A DNA stretch of 64,000 nucleotides, from assembly GCA_016432485.1 (NCBI GenBank), contig CP066691.1, forward strand, positions 11,348-75,347. The letters run 5' to 3'. Source of the stretch: Candidatus Niyogibacteria bacterium (GTDB taxonomy: Bacteria > Patescibacteriota > Minisyncoccia > HO2-45-28). The translations under genes and the position numbers were made by a program. The notes under the pieces are model-generated. The model was not told the origin of the DNA, did not search any database, and saw only the letters and a list, made by a program, of their open reading frames with translations. Positions 2,199 to 11,111 of the stretch are shown in pieces (the stretch's first letter is position 1; every line of letters begins with the position of its first letter).

Positions 2199-4376
2199 GT
2201 GTCTAAAAACGTGAAAATTATAGCTACTCTGGGCCCCGCAACCAGAAAAGAAGGCGATGTGCTTAAAATGCGCGGCCGTGTTGATTTTATCAGGGTAAAT
2301 ATGTCCCACTCTTCGCTTGAGGACTTGGATTATTTTGTTAAAATTTCAAAAAAAGTCGGCATCCCTTTTATTCTTGATACCGAGGGGTCGCAGATAAGGA
2401 GCGGAAGGTTTGAAAAACCGCCCGTTTATTTTAATAAAAACGATATGGTGGAGCTTTTGGGCGAGAGCGGAATTAAATCTGTAGGAGATAAAAATAAGAT
2501 TTATCTTCGTCCAAAAGAAATAATCCCGCAGCTTGAAGAAGGAGATATTCTTTATATGGATTTTGACACGTTGGCTTTGCGTGTTACCGATAACACTTTG
2601 CGTGACAAGGGGCGCGTTGGGACTAGCGTTATTACGGGAGGTTTTTTGGGCAACAATAAAGGTGTCGTGGTTGATTCGGCTTTTACTAAATCATATAGTT
2701 TGCCCACTCTTTCGCCAAAAGACACAGAAGCCATAAAAATCGGACTTGCTGAAAACCTCGGCTATATCGCCGCCTCGTTTATGCGTTCGGGGGAGGCCGT
2801 TGATGAGGTAAGAGAGGAAACGGATGGCAAGATGAAAATTATTTCAAAGATAGAATGCCAAGACGGCCTGAATAATTTAGATGACATTATTGCCAAGTCC
2901 GACTTTTTGCTTATTGACAGGGGCGACTTAAGTAAAGAAGTCCCTTTGGAAGACATCCCGTTTCTGCAAAAGGAAATAATTTCAAAAGCAAAAAGCGCAG
3001 GCAAAGGCACGTATGTCGCCACAAATCTTTTAGAAACAATGGTTGAGAAGAAAAAATCGACAAGGGCTGAAGTATGCGACGTGGTCAATATAATCCGCGA
3101 CGGAGCTTATGGGCTGACGTTGGCGTCAGAGACCGCCATAGGAAAATATTCCATGGAATGTATAAATATGCTAAATACCTTAATCTCGCGCGCCGGGTTG
3201 GGAAAAGGCAGCGACGCTTTAATTGCCCCTCACGGCGGAAAGCTTATCCATAGAATGATAAACACCCCGCCCGATAGTTCTTACTTAAACTCGCTTAAAA
3301 AATTGGAAATATCAGATGATATAGCGATGGACACGGAGCAGATAGCAACCGGCGTTTTCAGCCCACTGGAAGGTTTTATGGGGCGGGCAGATTTTCAAAG
3401 CGTTTTAGACAGCGCCCGTCTTGCAAACGGTCTGGTCTGGCCGCTTCCGATTGTTCTGGACGCCAGGCAAAATGACGCTGACGGATTTAATGCCGGAGAA
3501 GATATCGCGCTTACGCATAAGGGAGAGACACTTGCCATTTTACACTTGGATGAAAAATTTAATTTTGACAAAAAAGAAACAGCCCGAAAGATTTACGGAA
3601 CTCTAAACGAAGAACATACCGGCGTGCGGGGGGTTTTCGCGATGAATCCGGTTTTACTTGCCGGAAAAATTTCTCTTTTAAAAAGGAGAAATGCCGAACA
3701 CTTGGCTTACGCTCTGACTCCGAAGCAAGTGAGGCGGATTTTTAAAGAAAGGCACTGGTCGCGCGTGGTCGGGTTTCATACAAGAAATGTGATTCATAGA
3801 AGTCATGAGCATATACAGCTTGCCGCAATGAAGCAGGAAAACTGCGACGGGCTGTTTGTGCATCCGGTGGTCGGTAAGAAAAAGCCTGGCGATTACAACG
3901 CACGCTACATAATCAAGAGTTATGAAAGGATGCTCGGCGGCTTATATCCTGAAAATAAAGTTGTACTCGCAGCTTTCAATACCTATTCAAGATATGCCGG
4001 GCCAAGAGAGGCGTTATTTACCGCCATTTGCCGCCAGAATTTCGGCTGCAGTCATTTTGTGGTCGGACGAGACCATACCGGAGTCGGAAATTTTTATCCT
4101 CCGACGGCCTCGCACGACATATTTGACAAGTTTCCCGACCTGGGCATTAAAGCCGTGAAATTTGACGAAGTGTTTTATTCCAAAAAACTGGGTGCTTATG
4201 TGCGCGGCGAGGACAGCCCGAATCATGCTCCCGAGGACAAACTTTCCATCAGCGGCACCCAGGCGCGAAAAATGTTTGAGCGCGGTGTGGCGCCTCCGGA
4301 GTGGTTTATGCGCCCGGAAGTGTCCGGAATAATTATTGACGCCTTAAAACGCGGCGAAAAAGTGTTTGTGGAATAA
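2199..4376 (+). CDS. sat: Fusion protein: N-terminal pyruvate-kinase-like barrel domain (about aa 1-335) + C-terminal sulfate adenylyltransferase (ATP sulfurylase, Sat)
   Basis: The N-terminal part shows PK signatures in order: KIIATLGPAT, RVNMSHSS, LDTEGSQIR, ISKIECQDGLNN, LIDRGDLSKEVP, ATNLLETM, STRAEVCDV. The C-terminal part shows ATP sulfurylase signatures: APHGGKLI, GFHTRNVIHRSHEHIQ, VHPVVGKKKPGDY, VVGRDHTGVG. GTG start. Confidence 0.8.
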   Translation: MSKNVKIIATLGPATRKEGDVLKMRGRVDFIRVNMSHSSLEDLDYFVKISKKVGIPFILDTEGSQIRSGRFEKPPVYFNKNDMVELLGESGIKSVGDKNKIYLRPKEIIPQLEEGDILYMDFDTLALRVTDNTLRDKGRVGTSVITGGFLGNNKGVVVDSAFTKSYSLPTLSPKDTEAIKIGLAENLGYIAASFMRSGEAVDEVREETDGKMKIISKIECQDGLNNLDDIIAKSDFLLIDRGDLSKEVPLEDIPFLQKEIISKAKSAGKGTYVATNLLETMVEKKKSTRAEVCDVVNIIRDGAYGLTLASETAIGKYSMECINMLNTLISRAGLGKGSDALIAPHGGKLIHRMINTPPDSSYLNSLKKLEISDDIAMDTEQIATGVFSPLEGFMGRADFQSVLDSARLANGLVWPLPIVLDARQNDADGFNAGEDIALTHKGETLAILHLDEKFNFDKKETARKIYGTLNEEHTGVRGVFAMNPVLLAGKISLLKRRNAEHLAYALTPKQVRRIFKERHWSRVVGFHTRNVIHRSHEHIQLAAMKQENCDGLFVHPVVGKKKPGDYNARYIIKSYERMLGGLYPENKVVLAAFNTYSRYAGPREALFTAICRQNFGCSHFVVGRDHTGVGNFYPPTASHDIFDKFPDLGIKAVKFDEVFYSKKLGAYVRGEDSPNHAPEDKLSISGTQARKMFERGVAPPEWFMRPEVSGIIIDALKRGEKVFVE

Positions 4377-4392
4377 ATAAGGATGAACAAAT

Positions 4393-5364
4393 CTAACCGC
4401 GTCTAAATAATTCGCGCATTAAAGCCCCGCCCATACTCTTCATTCTTTTTATTTCCCTGATAATCTCCGTTCTCGCTTTTCTTTTTAAATGCCCTTCCGG
4501 GAGAAGGGTAATATGTTTATAACTTTTGTAGACCTCGTCCAGTTTTAAAGGAGAAAAACGTTTTAGCGCCTGTAGCCGTTCTATATCTGCAAAAATGGTT
4601 TCTTTTGGAATTTTTGCTGTCGGGTTATTATAGTACGCGTCAAAAATCGGAAGTAATTCGTCCCAAAATGGATGCGGAGCGAGAGTTACTTCCGTATCCT
4701 CGTTTCCGCGCGGACCGTAATGGGCGCTAACAAAGTGTCCGTCGCGCCATTTTTGCGCTCTCTTTGGATGTGAATCAGGAAAAGTTACTTTCCACCACTC
4801 GTTTAAATGCGGTCTCATAGCCAGATTGAGAAATGAAGACAGAGCTTCAATTGTGTCGTTATTTCTGCTAATGATGTCTTCCATTCGCGCGCGCAGCACT
4901 TTGTCCAGCAGGAAGCTTTTAATGAAGAAAGTCGTATAATCAATGGCGGCGCAAACCACGTTATTATCGGTAAAATATTGTGTTATAGTGCTGTTTTTGG
5001 CCAACCAGGTTCTTATGTCGCGGATTGTAAAAATTACAGGGTGGGGATTAAGAATGTCCATGGGGCAAGCGTTCATTTCGAATTCCGGCGCGTCAGAGCC
5101 CACGACCTTAAAAGGATATCCTTTTTCGGCTAAAAATTTTTGCAAGCGTATAAAAAAATCCTCCGGTATTGCTCCGTAGGAAAAAAGATTTCTGGCATCA
5201 GGGTAAGAAGAAATAAATCGCCCTCCGTATTTATCAAGCGAGTGTCTGCCGATTCTTGTTTCATACAGAATAAAAACATCCGGGTGGGCATTAAGCATTT
5301 GCACGATGACCGAGGTGCCGGTTTTGGCCGCGCCCACGACAAAAATAATGTTTTTATTCTCCAT
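4393..5364 (-). CDS. Sulfotransferase family protein (PAPS-dependent type)
   Basis: An N-terminal 5'-PSB-like P-loop (IFVVGAAKTGTSVI) and an RD-x-R..S region (TIRDIRTWLAKNS) are present. The gene is convergent with the sat fusion gene. Confidence 0.6.
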   Translation of the reverse strand: MENKNIIFVVGAAKTGTSVIVQMLNAHPDVFILYETRIGRHSLDKYGGRFISSYPDARNLFSYGAIPEDFFIRLQKFLAEKGYPFKVVGSDAPEFEMNACPMDILNPHPVIFTIRDIRTWLAKNSTITQYFTDNNVVCAAIDYTTFFIKSFLLDKVLRARMEDIISRNNDTIEALSSFLNLAMRPHLNEWWKVTFPDSHPKRAQKWRDGHFVSAHYGPRGNEDTEVTLAPHPFWDELLPIFDAYYNNPTAKIPKETIFADIERLQALKRFSPLKLDEVYKSYKHITLLPEGHLKRKARTEIIREIKRMKSMGGALMRELFRRG

Positions 5365-7238: not shown

Positions 7239-7240
7239 AC

Positions 7241-7522
7241 ATGCCCAGTACAATTACACCGATTGTGTTCTTCTACACTTATGTTCTGCGTAGCGATAAA
7301 GATGGCGATAATTACATAGGTTACAGCCACGATCTAAAAAAGAGATCAGAAGAACACAAAAAAGGCCTTGTTCCTGCCACTAAACACAGAAGGCCATTGA
7401 AGTTAATATATTATGAAGCATGTTTAAACAAAGAGGACGCTCAACAAAGAGAAAGATATTTAAAAACCACAAGGGGTCGAAGGTGGTTTGGCATGAGATT
7501 GCGAAATTATAAATCGGTGTAA
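7241..7522 (+). CDS. GIY-YIG nuclease family protein (YhbQ/UPF0213-like, 93 aa)
   Basis: GIY-YIG core (FYTYVLRSDKDGDNYIGYSHDLKKRSEEH) with C-terminal RERYLK...GRRW. The ORF is bounded by 18-bp perfect inverted repeats. Confidence 0.8.
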   Translation: MPSTITPIVFFYTYVLRSDKDGDNYIGYSHDLKKRSEEHKKGLVPATKHRRPLKLIYYEACLNKEDAQQRERYLKTTRGRRWFGMRLRNYKSV

Positions 7523-7530
7523 TTGTACTG
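7244..7530 (+). mobile_element. Small putative mobile unit: GIY-YIG ORF flanked by perfect terminal inverted repeats cagtacaattacaccgat / atcggtgtaattgtactg
   Basis: The sequence at 7246-7263 is the exact reverse complement of 7513-7530. The unit is inserted precisely between the ABC gene stop (7238) and the next gene. Its termini (CCCAGTACAATTA) are shared with the 140-bp element at 9836-9974. Confidence 0.6.
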
Positions 7531-8845
7531 CAAAACCTGTTTGCCCGGAATTATTTTTCACGAGCACTATGATGCCTGGGACGGCAAGCCCGCGCCGGCT
7601 TTGGCTTCGGCCGAATTTGAGCCGCCGTCTTACGAACTTATCAGTAAGTTCCATAAGACGGAGTCATTAGTCTTAACAATGATGAATAAACGTTTTGACT
7701 GGATGGGGACGGATGAACGAAGACATCTTTACTACACAATGCTTTCATACTGGAACGGAGTGGTTAAAAAATTTAATCCGGATGCCGTGATTTTCAGTAC
7801 TGCTCCGCACACCGTGTATGATTATATTCTTTACGAAATCGCGCGCTCGGAAAACATTAAAACAGTTATGTTTTGGAATATGTCTCCGATAGACGGCCGG
7901 CTGTTTTTCTATGAAGATTTTCGCGAGGGGAGCGGGCTTTTAAGTAAAATTACGCGAAAAAACATGAGTTACAATTTTTCGGTTTCTGATTTAAGCGAGG
8001 AAACGAGGAAATTTTATGAAACCGGAACATTAATCGGCGTTGACGCCCTCCCGCTCTATTTAAAAGAAGACCATGAACGCTTCGCTTTTTTAAACAGGAT
8101 GATTCTAAAGACGAAAGCGATTTTAGCGACTATTAAGCGGGGAGAATTTGTTGAACAGACGGCGCGGCGCGCGGCCAATTTTTTTAAAGAAAATATCCGG
8201 GACGAACACATTCGGGCGCAGTTTATTCCCGATTACTCCCAAAAATTCGTTTATGTCCCTCTGCATTATCAGCCCGAATGCACAACTTCCCCCTTGGGAG
8301 ACATATTTGTTGACCAAATTCTGATGATTAAAATTCTTTCAGCGTCTCTTCCCGTCGGATGGAAAATTTACGCAAAAGAACATCCTTTTCAATGGTATCA
8401 GCGCGGGCTAAATTTCGCGGGCTCGCGTTACCGCGGCTACTACGATAAAATATCCGGCATTAAAAATGTTCGTCTGGTGCCCCTGGAAACTGACAATTAT
8501 GAACTGATAAATCGCGCTCAAGCCGTGGCAACCGTCGGCGGCACCGCCGGCATTGAGGCGCTTTTACGCCAAAAACCCGTTATAGTTTTTGGTTATCCCT
8601 GGTATCGCTCTTGTCCCCATGTTTTCAAAGCGGACGGCGTGGAATCTTGCAGCAAGGCTCTTCAAAAAATCGCGGACGGATTTTCCGTGAATAATCAATC
8701 GATAATAAATTTTTTAAAAAACCTTGACGAAAGCACGATTCGCGGGTATGTTGACGAATATGGTCAGAGGTTTGTAAGGTTGAGCGCGGAAGAAAACTCG
8801 GCAAACATATCGCGCGCGATTTTGGAAATAATAACGGAAAAATAA
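7523..8845 (+). CDS. Capsule_synth family protein (KpsS/KpsC-like beta-Kdo-transferase family; candidate CMP-ulosonic-acid transferase)
   Basis: Blocks align with E. coli KpsS: VYVPLHYQPE, EHPFQWYQRG, LVPLETDNYELINRAQAVATVGGTAGIEALLRQKPVIVFG. The true start is probably the ATG at 7679 (MMNKRF...), because 7523-7678 contains the IR terminus and a strong hairpin and uses a TTG start. Confidence 0.6.
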   Translation: MYCKTCLPGIIFHEHYDAWDGKPAPALASAEFEPPSYELISKFHKTESLVLTMMNKRFDWMGTDERRHLYYTMLSYWNGVVKKFNPDAVIFSTAPHTVYDYILYEIARSENIKTVMFWNMSPIDGRLFFYEDFREGSGLLSKITRKNMSYNFSVSDLSEETRKFYETGTLIGVDALPLYLKEDHERFAFLNRMILKTKAILATIKRGEFVEQTARRAANFFKENIRDEHIRAQFIPDYSQKFVYVPLHYQPECTTSPLGDIFVDQILMIKILSASLPVGWKIYAKEHPFQWYQRGLNFAGSRYRGYYDKISGIKNVRLVPLETDNYELINRAQAVATVGGTAGIEALLRQKPVIVFGYPWYRSCPHVFKADGVESCSKALQKIADGFSVNNQSIINFLKNLDESTIRGYVDEYGQRFVRLSAEENSANISRAILEIITEK

Positions 8846-8848
8846 TCT

Positions 8849-9835
8849 ATGTCGTTTGAATGCTTAAAAGATAAAGCTATTTTAATAACCGGAGGCACCG
8901 GTTCTTTCGGCCGGAGTTTTGTCCGTCATTTGCTGGGCTCTAAAGCAAAAAAGATTGTTGTTTTTTCAAGGGACGAGCTGAAGCAATCCGAGATGCAGAG
9001 CGAAATGAAAGACGAGCGTCTGCGGTTTTTTATAGGCGATATTCGCGATTTGTCCCGCCTTCAAAGGGCTTTTCGGGATGTTGATGTCGTGGTGCATGCC
9101 GCGGCTCTTAAACAGGTGCCGGCAATGGAATACAATCCGTTTGAGGCGGTGCAAACCAATATAATCGGAAGCCAAAATGTTATTGAAGCCGCGATTGACC
9201 AAGGTGTCCGAAAAGTTTTACTTATATCAACCGACAAAGCCGCGGAGCCGATAAATCTTTACGGCGCCACTAAGCTCTGCGCGGAAAAATTGTTTATAAG
9301 CGGAAATTCTTACGCTCCGGGGAAAACCATTCTTAGCGCGGTGAGATACGGGAATGTTATCGGCAGTCGCGGGAGCGTTATTGACGTTCTTAAAAGAAGT
9401 CGGGATGTCAAGCGCGTTTACATCACGGATCCGGCTATGACTCGTTTTTGGATTACCTTAAATCAAAGTTTTAAACTTGTGGATTTCGCGCTTGAAAATA
9501 TGACCGGAGGAGAAATTTTTATACCGAAACTTTCAAGCATGAAACTTTCGGACTTGTTTGATGTTTTGGCGCCGGGAGCCGAGCGGGAAATAATCGGTCC
9601 TCGCGCCGGAGAAAAAATTCATGAAGTACTGCTTACCAGCGAAGAGTCCTATAGGGCGTTGGAAATGGAAGATATGTATGTGGTGCTCCCTCTGTTTCCT
9701 TATGAGGCGGATATTCATTCCAAATATCATGAATCTGGACGGAAACCCGAGTCGGGATTTCGCTTCGCCAGCCACACGAATAAAAATTGGCTTACTAAAG
9801 AGGATTTTAAAAAAATACTTAACGACGAATTATGA
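8849..9835 (+). CDS. pseB: UDP-N-acetylglucosamine 4,6-dehydratase (inverting), PseB/FlaA1-like
   Basis: ILITGGTGSFGRSFV start, then IGDIRD, VVHAAALKQVP, ISTDKAAEPINLYGATK, TDPAMTRFWITL. The protein is a short (328 aa) CapD-type enzyme. Confidence 0.85.
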   Translation: MSFECLKDKAILITGGTGSFGRSFVRHLLGSKAKKIVVFSRDELKQSEMQSEMKDERLRFFIGDIRDLSRLQRAFRDVDVVVHAAALKQVPAMEYNPFEAVQTNIIGSQNVIEAAIDQGVRKVLLISTDKAAEPINLYGATKLCAEKLFISGNSYAPGKTILSAVRYGNVIGSRGSVIDVLKRSRDVKRVYITDPAMTRFWITLNQSFKLVDFALENMTGGEIFIPKLSSMKLSDLFDVLAPGAEREIIGPRAGEKIHEVLLTSEESYRALEMEDMYVVLPLFPYEADIHSKYHESGRKPESGFRFASHTNKNWLTKEDFKKILNDEL

Positions 9836-9974
9836 CCCAGTACAATTAAATCGAATGCTAAATTTAGTTTCTTGGGTGGTATAAATATGTATTATTATAA
9901 AATTATATTTAAGCAAATTAGTCGGGAGTTTGCTTGCGAATTTAGCAAGAAACTTTCGATTTAATTGTACTGGG
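9836..9974. mobile_element. MITE-like ORF-less element with 20-bp perfect terminal inverted repeats (cccagtacaattaaatcgaa ... ttcgatttaattgtactggg)
   Basis: The sequence at 9836-9855 is the exact reverse complement of 9955-9974. Its termini match those of the GIY-YIG unit at 7244-7530. It fills the entire pseB-pseC spacer, and its right end supplies GGG just before the pseC ATG. Confidence 0.6.
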
Positions 9975-11111
9975 ATGATTCCTTATAGCCGTCAGTCTGT
10001 TGACGCGAACGATATCAAAGCGGTTGTCGGGGTCTTGTCGTCTGATTTTATTACGCAAGGGCCGACGGTGTCTAAATTTGAAAAATCGCTCGCGCTTTAT
10101 TGCGGTGTTGAGTACGCAGTCGCAGTTTCAAACGGAACGGCTGCTTTGCATCTGGCGTATCTCGCCGCCGGATTAAAGAAGGGGGACGAGGCAATTACGA
10201 CCCCGAACACTTTTGCCGCGACCTCAAATATGCTTCTTGTCGTCGGCGCGAGGCCCGTTTTTGCCGATATCCGTCTTGATACGCGTAATCTTGACGAGAC
10301 AAAAATTGAAAAGCTGATTACCCCGAAAACAAAAGTGATTGTGCCCGTGCATTTCGCGGGATTGCCTTGCGATATGAAAACAATTTCATCAATCGCCAAA
10401 AAACGCCGTTTATTGGTTATTGAAGACGCTTGCCATGCTTTAGGCGCCAGGTATCGCGATTCCAAAATAGGCGATTGTAAGTACTCGGACATGGCCGTAT
10501 TCAGCTTTCATCCGGTAAAAACGATAACAACCGGCGAAGGCGGAGCGGTATTAACCAATAAAAAATCATATTACGATAAACTCTTGCGTTTGAGAAGTCA
10601 CGGCATTCACAAAGACAAAATCGGAAAAAATGTCATGACGGCTCTCGGATACAACTACAGGATGACCGATATTCAGGCCGCTTTGGGCTTGTCCCAACTT
10701 TCTAAAGTTGATTCTTTTGTCAGGCGGCGCAATCAAGTCGCGAGATATTATGAGGAGGAATTAAAAAATTCCAAAGATGTTTTGTTGCCCGTAAGCTTTC
10801 CCGGATATTATTCAGCGGGGCATATTTATGTAATAAGGGTTTCCAACCGGAAGAATCGCGATGAGCTCGCGTCTTTTTTAAAAAAGAACGGCATCGGCGC
10901 GAACTTCCATTATCCGGCCGTTTATTCCCACCCGTATTACAGGCGCAACGGTTATAAAAATATCCGCCTTGCTCAAACGGAAAAATACCATAATTCTTGC
11001 ATCACTCTTCCGTGTTACCCCGGTCTTTCCAAATCAATTGTTCGTGAAATCGCGGGGCTTATTAATAAATTTTTCATAAAAAATGAAAATACACGCGTTG
11101 ACTCCGTCTGA
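9975..11111 (+). CDS. pseC: DegT/DnrJ/EryC1/StrS-family PLP aminotransferase, PseC-like (UDP-4-amino-4,6-dideoxy-N-acetyl-beta-L-altrosamine transaminase)
   Basis: MIPYSRQSVD...DFITQGP start; SNGTAALHLA; PLP-lysine region SFHPVKTITTGEGG; C-terminal YPGL. The ATG at 9975 is preferred over the upstream TTG. Confidence 0.85.
   Translation: MIPYSRQSVDANDIKAVVGVLSSDFITQGPTVSKFEKSLALYCGVEYAVAVSNGTAALHLAYLAAGLKKGDEAITTPNTFAATSNMLLVVGARPVFADIRLDTRNLDETKIEKLITPKTKVIVPVHFAGLPCDMKTISSIAKKRRLLVIEDACHALGARYRDSKIGDCKYSDMAVFSFHPVKTITTGEGGAVLTNKKSYYDKLLRLRSHGIHKDKIGKNVMTALGYNYRMTDIQAALGLSQLSKVDSFVRRRNQVARYYEEELKNSKDVLLPVSFPGYYSAGHIYVIRVSNRKNRDELASFLKKNGIGANFHYPAVYSHPYYRRNGYKNIRLAQTEKYHNSCITLPCYPGLSKSIVREIAGLINKFFIKNENTRVDSV

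Follow-up and report, generated by a model that had tools for sequence, protein, structure and literature searches.

Mobility of a family of miniature terminal-inverted-repeat elements associated with a minimal GIY-YIG nuclease, seen from two copies in a Niyogibacteria genome

The Ssn enzymes described by Chenal et al. (2025, Nat Commun, PMC11893778) are single-domain GIY-YIG nucleases of 94 amino acids (aa) that cut only single-stranded DNA adjacent to a hairpin repeat, NTS/SRM. This repeat is present in hundreds of copies, among them copies on either side of the ssn gene. It is thus already published that a minimal GIY-YIG nuclease may be accompanied by hairpin repeats, both beside its gene and dispersed; the authors noted that the layout resembles that of insertion sequences (IS) and compared it with RAYT/REP, and they left open whether such nucleases and their repeats are, or once were, mobile. 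The main text of that study does not report target duplications, empty sites or start-codon targeting, and bacteria of the candidate phyla radiation (CPR) are not mentioned. Here we analyze 64,000 nucleotides of Candidatus Niyogibacteria bacterium (assembly GCA_016432485.1, contig CP066691.1, positions 11,348 to 75,347), hereafter called the window, in which two miniature elements share their ends: element 1 carries the gene of a GIY-YIG nuclease, and element 2 has no open reading frame (ORF). We consider it probable that both belong to a widespread family of miniature mobile elements in Patescibacteria (CPR bacteria). The mobility of this family is established by bounded units, insertions with 4-bp duplications, presence and absence between genomes, re-use of targets and gene-less partners. 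Coordinates without a locus name refer to the window, where the features of both elements and the truncated gene beside element 1 lie on the + strand.

Element 2 is a genuine, intact insertion into the ATGA overlap of a PseB-like and a PseC-like gene, with duplication of these 4 bp. It spans 139 bp (9836-9974) and is bounded by perfect 20-bp terminal inverted repeats (TIRs; 9836-9855 and 9955-9974); the initial annotation had correctly pointed to an ORF-less element with the same termini, at a length of 140 bp. The left copy of the target-site duplication (TSD), ATGA at 9832-9835, includes the TGA stop codon of the PseB-like gene, while the ATG of the right copy (9975-9978) is the start codon of the PseC-like aminotransferase (MIPYSRQ...). 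The filled site therefore reads ...GAATT ATGA [139 bp] ATGA TTCCTTATAGC. In the related Niyogibacteria loci L213-L215 the site is empty, and the two genes overlap in a single ATGA (...GAGTC ATGA TCCCTTATAGC). A further relative with the same gene order, L216, has the junction TAA AC GTG, and the element is likewise missing. The initial annotation had named conserved regulatory hairpins as the alternative to a mobile element; since the elements are absent from orthologous loci, they are not such hairpins. Folded as single-stranded DNA, element 2 forms one long hairpin (-31.1 kcal/mol, z = -9.6). Its likeness to element 1 is limited to the termini, of which 13 nt are shared (CCCAGTACAATTA...TAATTGTACTGGG; the shared terminal sequence is also given as CCCAGTAC). 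No copies beyond these two were found in the 64-kb window.

The target sites were evaluated in 15 elements of the subfamily with CCCAGTA-type ends. Perfect 4-bp direct repeats flank 11 of them (TATG in six, ATGA in three, CATG in one and TAAA in one), so that the TSDs which the initial annotation had suggested looking for are present at element 2 and in most of its subfamily. Among the imperfect flanks, one element matches at three of the four positions, two share only ATG and two share none. The flanking 4-mer differs among close copies yet matches within each copy, and must therefore be a duplicated target and not element sequence. A right-hand 4-mer that travels with the element, as in IS200/IS605, was considered and rejected, because different 4-mers, each matching on its two sides, are found at copies that are ~80% identical or reside in the same genome.

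For an element with the nuclease gene there is an empty site as well, the second in this analysis. In L220 an element of 292 bp lies between two copies of CATG, the second of which opens relA; in the syntenic loci L224 and L226 there is a single CATG at the relA start. The RelA protein beside the L220 element is full length (564 aa). Upstream of the relA gene of L224, which lacks the nuclease element, we also observed a gene-less hairpin of another arm type (CCCGTTAGAAAT...ATTTCTAACGGG), at ~1400-1470 and ~55 nt from the relA start. In L218 (1896-2350) two elements stand in tandem at one start codon, in the order TATG, GIY-YIG element, TATG, 138-bp gene-less element of MITE type (MITEs being miniature inverted-repeat transposable elements), TATG-ftsW. 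Here the regenerated target was hit a second time, and the arms of the 138-bp element (CCCCGTAATACAACTTCG) are different from those of its GIY-YIG neighbor.

Nearly all CCCAGTA-type insertions are located at start codons, among them those of pseC-like, relA, ileS, ftsW, rplJ-like and aspS-like genes, and 0-1 nt past the element the ATG of the host gene is present again. The insertion at TAAA, in L117, indicates that an ATG is not a requirement. All nine nuclease-bearing copies for which the neighbor is known are co-oriented with the downstream gene. An NATG duplication puts the left ATG in frame with the nuclease ORF; this in-frame ATG, together with the leader encoded by the TIR, explains the MP(S/R/G) leader found in 20 of the best 120 homologues. 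The right arm contains the stop codon of the nuclease, which precedes the restored ATG by 8-23 nt. The preference for exactly ATG probably reflects both enzyme specificity and selection in gene-dense genomes, and it is the tandem hit in L218 that argues for a contribution of specificity.

Element 1, at 288 bases, shows the same geometry on its left side. The tetranucleotide CATG (7240-7243) forms the left flank, i.e. the target copy, and represents the host start codon of a capsule gene of 494 aa that is now lost; its ATG doubles as the called start of the nuclease ORF (7241-7522, 93 aa; Pfam PF01541, E 1.9e-14), the only gene of the element. The left TIR, CCCAGTACAATTACACCGATT (7244-7264), encodes residues 2-8 (PSTITPI) of the called ORF, and the right TIR, AATCGGTGTAATTGTACTG (7512-7530), holds the TAA stop at 7520-7522, in agreement with the initial annotation, which had placed the left repeat in the first codons and the right one over the stop. 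The perfect inverted repeat of 18 bp that it reported around the ORF is real and turned out to be one base longer (19 bp, 7246-7264 versus 7512-7530); for the 18-mer the chance expectation in the 64-kb window is 0.01. A start codon internal to the element would be GTG at 7265, the counterpart of which is ATG in an element from Jorgensenbacteria (L047) with an identical left end. The left junction, CATG/CCCAGT, has the form seen at other insertions, and NATG/CCC junctions were found in 10 other elements. The right end of element 1 reads GTACTG/CA, while intact relatives have GTACTGGG followed by the duplication; the terminal GG that is present in every intact relative is missing. With its right end deleted, the TSD of element 1 is not scorable. 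Element 1 is probably no longer mobile in cis and serves only as a source of nuclease. The left arms of both elements contain TACAAT (7249-7254 and 9841-9846), for which a promoter scan found a partner, a -35-like hexamer, in the flanking DNA; this motif may be a -10 box that faces inward and relies on host sequence.

The loss at the right end becomes apparent from the gene order in L213-L215 and L216, which is ABC exporter, 494-aa capsule gene, 474-aa capsule gene, PseB-like gene and PseC-like gene. The 494-aa gene, which in these relatives directly follows the ABC exporter, is absent from the whole 64-kb window. The ATG at 7241 occupies the expected position of its start codon, which in the relatives follows the ABC-exporter stop there. 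The next gene in the window (7541-8845) encodes a KpsS-like protein (Capsule_synth) and is the 5'-truncated orthologue of the 474-aa gene, from residue 41 onward. Its product has 437 aa as compared to 465-494 aa in all 120 homologues listed, and the alignment with homologues shows that the first ~40 residues are missing. From the short KpsS-like protein and the missing 494-aa gene it follows that the right end of element 1 abuts a deletion of ~1.6 kb relative to the relatives, comprising the whole 494-aa gene and ~40 codons of the next. At the junction (7531-7540) the end of the element is fused to codon ~38-41 of the KpsS-like gene. The proposal in the initial annotation that the unit fills the complete spacer between the ABC exporter and the KpsS-like gene was therefore not borne out. 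As judged from these alignments, the simplest history would be an insertion at the start codon of the 494-aa gene, followed by a deletion of ~1.6 kb that would have taken the last two bases of element 1, the duplication, the 494-aa gene and ~40 codons of the following gene. Further upstream, an ORF of 725 aa (2199-4376) seems, from its translation judged by eye, to be a fusion of a pyruvate-kinase-like part at the N terminus and an ATP-sulfurylase-like part at the C terminus, and a sulfotransferase-like gene (4393-5364) adjoins it.

How far does the family extend? The same design was found in at least three lineages of Patescibacteria and on many unassigned metagenome contigs, and the termini, which the initial annotation had suggested searching for in relatives, are found again in Jorgensenbacteria and Saccharibacteria, both with an ORF and without one. 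A scan of genome contigs (596 Gb) with the terminus query CCCAGTACAATTANNNCGA gave 120 loci, nearly all of them single chance matches (~280 are expected for 16 fixed bases in 596 Gb); the only real ones were L047 and three Saccharibacteria contigs (L041, L044 and L117). The Jorgensenbacteria element (L047, also L131 and L132) has a 20-bp terminus identical to that of element 1 and a nuclease that is 77% identical. The DNA similarity between L047 and element 1 (~80%) begins at CCC and ends at the right end, and the flanks are unrelated. In L047, the host gene upstream of the element ends in ...TTTTACTGGGTATAG (1318-1331), which resembles a right end (TACTGGG + TATG) and may be the remnant of an earlier insertion or a chance occurrence.

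The Saccharibacteria copies are gene-less and lie on three contigs of one metagenome-assembled genome. These copies (L041 3818-3955, L044 4154-4291 and L117 3627-3765, reverse) contain a further "right end" in their interior, GGTAATACTGGG, at a distance of ~53 bp from the left end, and the 4 nt after it equal the local target duplication (TATG three times in L041, TAAA three times in L117). Between genomes, DNA similarity of the elements runs exactly from CCC to GGG, and conservation is higher in the termini than in the ORF. The elements of L134b, L136 and L218, for example, are 78-81% identical, with the similarity bounded exactly by CCC/GGG, and elements of ~80% identity occur in different phyla at unrelated sites.

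The architecture was further analyzed in 80 metagenome loci with encoded relatives of the nuclease, with randomly placed positions as controls. Inverted repeats bracket the ORF in 47 of 68 loci above the 95th percentile of the controls (Mann-Whitney p = 3e-26), and the core CCCNGT...ACNGGG is present on both sides in 42 of 77 loci compared to 3 of 1060 controls. The arms vary between loci and match within a locus, as in GCCCCGTGAAATA, CCCCGTTAGACCT and ACCCTGTTAAATAA. A typical family element has TIRs of 13-20 bp that start with CCCNGT and end with ACNGGG. Between the arms there is either one minimal single-domain GIY-YIG gene (84-100 aa, ~290 bp in total) or 50-140 bp of non-coding DNA that completes the hairpin, and ~530 kb of related loci yielded no other genes between these ends. 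Hairpin units that lack a gene but have the local arms lie near the nuclease gene in L134, L153, L179, L143, L187 and L206, with up to three copies within 550 bp in L153. In that locus (475-1023) the arms TGCCCTGTGTAATA enclose the nuclease gene, and two gene-less units of 95 and 60 bp that share these arms come within the next 250 bp; the arrangement is intermediate between the layout in the window and that of Ssn/SRM. Internally, the gene-less copies showed no homology to the nuclease gene, and they are therefore not simple deletion derivatives of it.

The protein family comprises 836 clusters at 50% identity (E <= 1e-10). Some of its members differ in context. The nuclease is the same in L121 and L122 but the upstream context differs, with a breakpoint 74 nt outside the repeat that is uninformative on the element ends. 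Another small subgroup of GIY-YIG genes immediately adjoins tRNA genes, in L121 (2290-2700), L142, L202 and L162; upstream of the GIY-YIG ORF of L121 there is a second copy of the 5' half of the tRNA, which gives the impression of an insertion into the tRNA gene or beside it. In P0252 (655 aa, residues 209-295) and other long representatives the GIY-YIG domain is found inside much longer proteins, which may be in-frame insertions in host genes or gene-calling read-through.

The 93-aa protein of element 1 consists of one GIY-YIG domain (residues 11-80, Pfam). The residues that are invariant in the family (Tyr-14, Tyr-25, Gly-27, His-39 and Glu-71) are all intact, and the near-invariant Arg-35 is also present. 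An AlphaFold2 model (pLDDT, the predicted local confidence score, 89.6) has a compact fold of three strands and three helices. The closest folds are the UPF0213 protein BH0048 (PDB-code: 1zg2) and the nuclease domain of Slx1 (TM-score 0.62, r.m.s.d. of 2.0 Å over 73 residues), with I-TevI and UvrC far lower in the structural ranking. A sequence search of the PDB returned the same order, with E-values of 4e-9 and 2e-7 for the UPF0213 and Slx1 matches, and sequence similarity is significant to the UPF0213 members BH0048 and EF2693. The match to the NCBIfam model of group I intron endonucleases reaches 20.4 bits, against a cut-off of 56.

The family profile scores Ssn-type proteins whose genes are flanked by hairpins (Azospirillum and Rhizobium) at 44.8-46.1 bits, compared to 39.8 bits for BH0048 and 24 bits for E. 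coli YhbQ. Pfam does not separate the UPF0213 and Ssn-type groups, and the pairwise identity to SRM-flanked Ssn-type proteins is only ~35%. The label "YhbQ-type" in the initial annotation agrees with the significant UPF0213 similarity, but in view of the equal or higher scores of the Ssn-type proteins it is looser than "Ssn-like". On the basis of these comparisons, the window family is best described as a putative Ssn relative with a different repeat architecture. The two homologues used as controls are plasmid-borne and flanked by SRM hairpins (L222 in Azospirillum, L223 in Rhizobium). The SRM pattern (HGTCWY N0-2 YYVSBRH N0-5 WNVSBRG N0-2 RNCYNB) has four copies around each of these control genes and no match in the 64-kb window. 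In L222 (Azospirillum lipoferum 4B plasmid AZO_p3, 255506-255799) the Ssn-type gene lies between sufB and sufC with inverted pairs of SRM hairpins, CGTCATCCCCGCGAAGGCGGGGATCCAG, on both sides, and looks like an insertion into a conserved operon.

A comparison with described systems places the window family closest to Ssn, with which it has in common a single-domain GIY-YIG protein of ~90-100 aa, a gene bracketed by inverted, hairpin-forming repeats, and gene-less copies elsewhere. The ssn genes, however, are flanked by compact, self-contained hairpins of 20-50 nt (HGTCWY...), often paired, whereas the window family has one long-range pair of arms around the whole gene, which sits in the loop. 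RAYT/REPIN systems also combine a single small gene flanked by palindromic repeats with gene-less hairpin doublets of the same repeats, in an autonomous/non-autonomous relation based on the recognition of hairpins, but RAYTs are HUH/Y1 enzymes that act through a covalent intermediate and leave no target duplication, in contrast to a GIY-YIG hydrolase and 4-bp duplications here. Very small size, ends recognized as single-stranded DNA hairpins and insertion next to a specific tetra- or pentanucleotide are shared with IS200/IS605, which differ in their HUH transposase TnpA, sub-terminal hairpins and lack of a target duplication. Bacterial MITEs such as Correia and IS-derived elements are similar in length (50-300 bp), TIRs, short target duplication, location at gene borders and co-transcription with neighbors. 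The MITEs known so far either descend from IS elements of the DDE-transposase type or lack a known enzyme, while the full-length partner here encodes only a GIY-YIG protein and is shorter than 320 bp. TIRs, a TSD of fixed length and presence or absence at orthologous loci, by which TIR-type transposable elements and MITEs are recognized, are all found in the present family.

Homing genes of the T4 SegA-G and I-TevI type have the GIY-YIG fold and are likewise small selfish genes between conserved genes with little effect on expression, but their enzymes are of ~200-250 aa with DNA-binding modules and one cognate site, and they have no inverted repeats, duplications or gene-less derivatives. UPF0213/YhbQ proteins and Slx1, the best structural matches of the window protein, are encoded by chromosomal single-copy genes or are eukaryotic repair nucleases with the partner Slx4, and we know of no association of either with terminal repeats. 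The elements in the window encode no transposase of a known class (DDE, HUH, serine or tyrosine recombinase), the GIY-YIG nuclease being their sole ORF. The initial annotation was thus right to set the unit apart from both classical homing endonucleases and IS elements: the protein has 93 aa and a single domain, TIRs and TSDs are present, many sites are occupied and there is no known transposase.

What moves these elements? The co-variation of arms and gene, the co-orientation with the downstream gene and the in-frame start are observed directly; that the nuclease drives the movement is what we infer by analogy. Insertion duplicates 4 bp, usually (T/C)ATG or ATGA at the start codon of a gene, and the right-hand copy of the duplication restores the host start codon. 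With an NATG duplication, the nuclease would borrow the translation start of the host gene (leader MPS...). The nuclease would recognize the hairpin of the paired ends in single-stranded DNA, cut at its foot and mobilize its own element as well as gene-less copies in trans; hairpin recognition, cutting and action in trans are suggested by the Ssn precedent together with the Slx1-like fold. Translational take-over with re-initiation at the restored ATG is an idea from the geometry only. We tentatively propose, as a possibility that we rate as less likely than not, that elements of ~290 bp with one protein of 84-93 aa might be the smallest autonomous DNA transposons known, in which a hydrolytic GIY-YIG enzyme guided by hairpins would cut the foot of the paired ends and (T/C)ATG(A) targets, host functions would join the ends, and the whole would be adapted to start codons. 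For the pair in the window, which the initial annotation had read as autonomous and non-autonomous partners, mobility is borne out by empty sites, TSDs and repeats throughout the family, while the nuclease as driver is an extrapolation, and the right end of element 1 is damaged.

Several observations weigh against mobile elements driven by their own nuclease. The window lacks the SRM motif published for Ssn systems, the right end of the nuclease-bearing copy is damaged, and the copy number is two within the 64 kb covered, out of a contig of 837 kb. A perfect 4-bp repeat is missing in 4 of the 15 elements evaluated. In the larger subfamily with proteins of 84 aa (ACCCTGTTAAATAA arms), the 4 nt outside CCC...GGG are inverted and not direct, and a TSD is not definable. 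Furthermore, GIY-YIG enzymes are hydrolytic and, to our knowledge, none performs strand transfer, so that insertion with TIRs and TSDs needs a further joining activity. TIRs with short TSDs of fixed length are classically the mark of DDE transposases, and enzymes of this class encoded elsewhere in the genome could act in trans. The elements could accordingly be ordinary MITEs moved by a conventional transposase of, for example, the DDE type, with the GIY-YIG gene as cargo or in another selfish role such as cutting empty sites or competitors. The lack of a known joining activity and the interior of the gene-less copies, which is unrelated to the nuclease gene, fit this explanation. We nevertheless regard it as unlikely: the arms co-vary with the nuclease gene over dozens of divergent loci and embed both its start and its stop, no other gene was seen within these ends in the ~530 kb of related loci, and the nearest characterized relatives bind hairpins that flank their own genes.

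A domesticated Ssn-like system, in which the host keeps the hairpins as recognition sites and the nuclease cuts hairpin-bearing single-stranded DNA such as incoming transforming DNA (as in Neisseria), with the insertions being ancient and immobile, would agree with the Ssn precedent (PMC11893778), with the relationship to SRM-flanked Ssn-type proteins, with the low number of copies in the window and with the damage to element 1. We judge it improbable, as related genomes differ in presence and absence with intact TSDs, a target was re-used in tandem, elements of ~80% identity occupy unrelated sites in different phyla and the termini are conserved to the last base; such a role would moreover be compatible with a mobile origin and leaves the TSDs unexplained. 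A free-standing homing endonuclease gene like Seg/Mob of phage T4, which would spread by double-strand-break repair and only to the same site in genomes without the endonuclease, is very unlikely. The catalytic domain, the position between or at the start of conserved genes and the weak, sub-threshold NCBIfam match are in line with homing, but a protein of 93 aa without a DNA-binding domain, which sits at many unrelated sites (relA, ileS, ftsW, rplJ-like, aspS-like and pseC-like genes among them), is not, and homing elements lack TIRs, target duplications and gene-less derivatives. We give least credence of all to immobile regulatory RNA or DNA hairpins (attenuators, terminators or processing sites) or chance repeats. 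The very stable folds and the location at gene starts would suit regulation; against it, the hairpins are absent from orthologous loci, have no T-tract of a terminator and belong to no Rfam family (the only hairpin match, with E 0.03, is a chance one), and among the mismatches in their stems G-U-compatible pairs are not clearly in excess (29 G.T, 20 A.C and 88 other). Chance repeats are countered by the expectation of 0.01 given above.

Mobile elements with the nuclease as the candidate driver thus remain the reading we prefer. Literature searches on GIY-YIG mobile elements returned no description of these elements. As far as full-text searches show, the gene-inside-hairpin architecture, the 4-bp duplications with empty sites, the targeting of start codons with restoration of ATG and the occurrence in Patescibacteria are new. 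Elements 1 and 2 and their relatives are the clearest genomic evidence so far for the mobility of a minimal nuclease with its hairpin repeats: target duplications, empty sites and tandem re-insertion provide the classical genomic proofs of mobility for a putative sister clade of Ssn. If the nuclease indeed mobilizes the elements, this would be a route of transposition outside the DDE, HUH and recombinase classes, and the smallest protein-coding mobile element known. The family is also a reservoir of small nucleases with co-varying recognition hairpins, which is relevant to tools for single-stranded DNA. For the host, the ~1.6-kb deletion beside element 1 indicates that these elements can also erode genes. 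Insertion at a start codon that restores the host ATG and fuses the nuclease ORF to host initiation signals would allow a parasite to persist where, as in CPR bacteria, there is almost no intergenic space.

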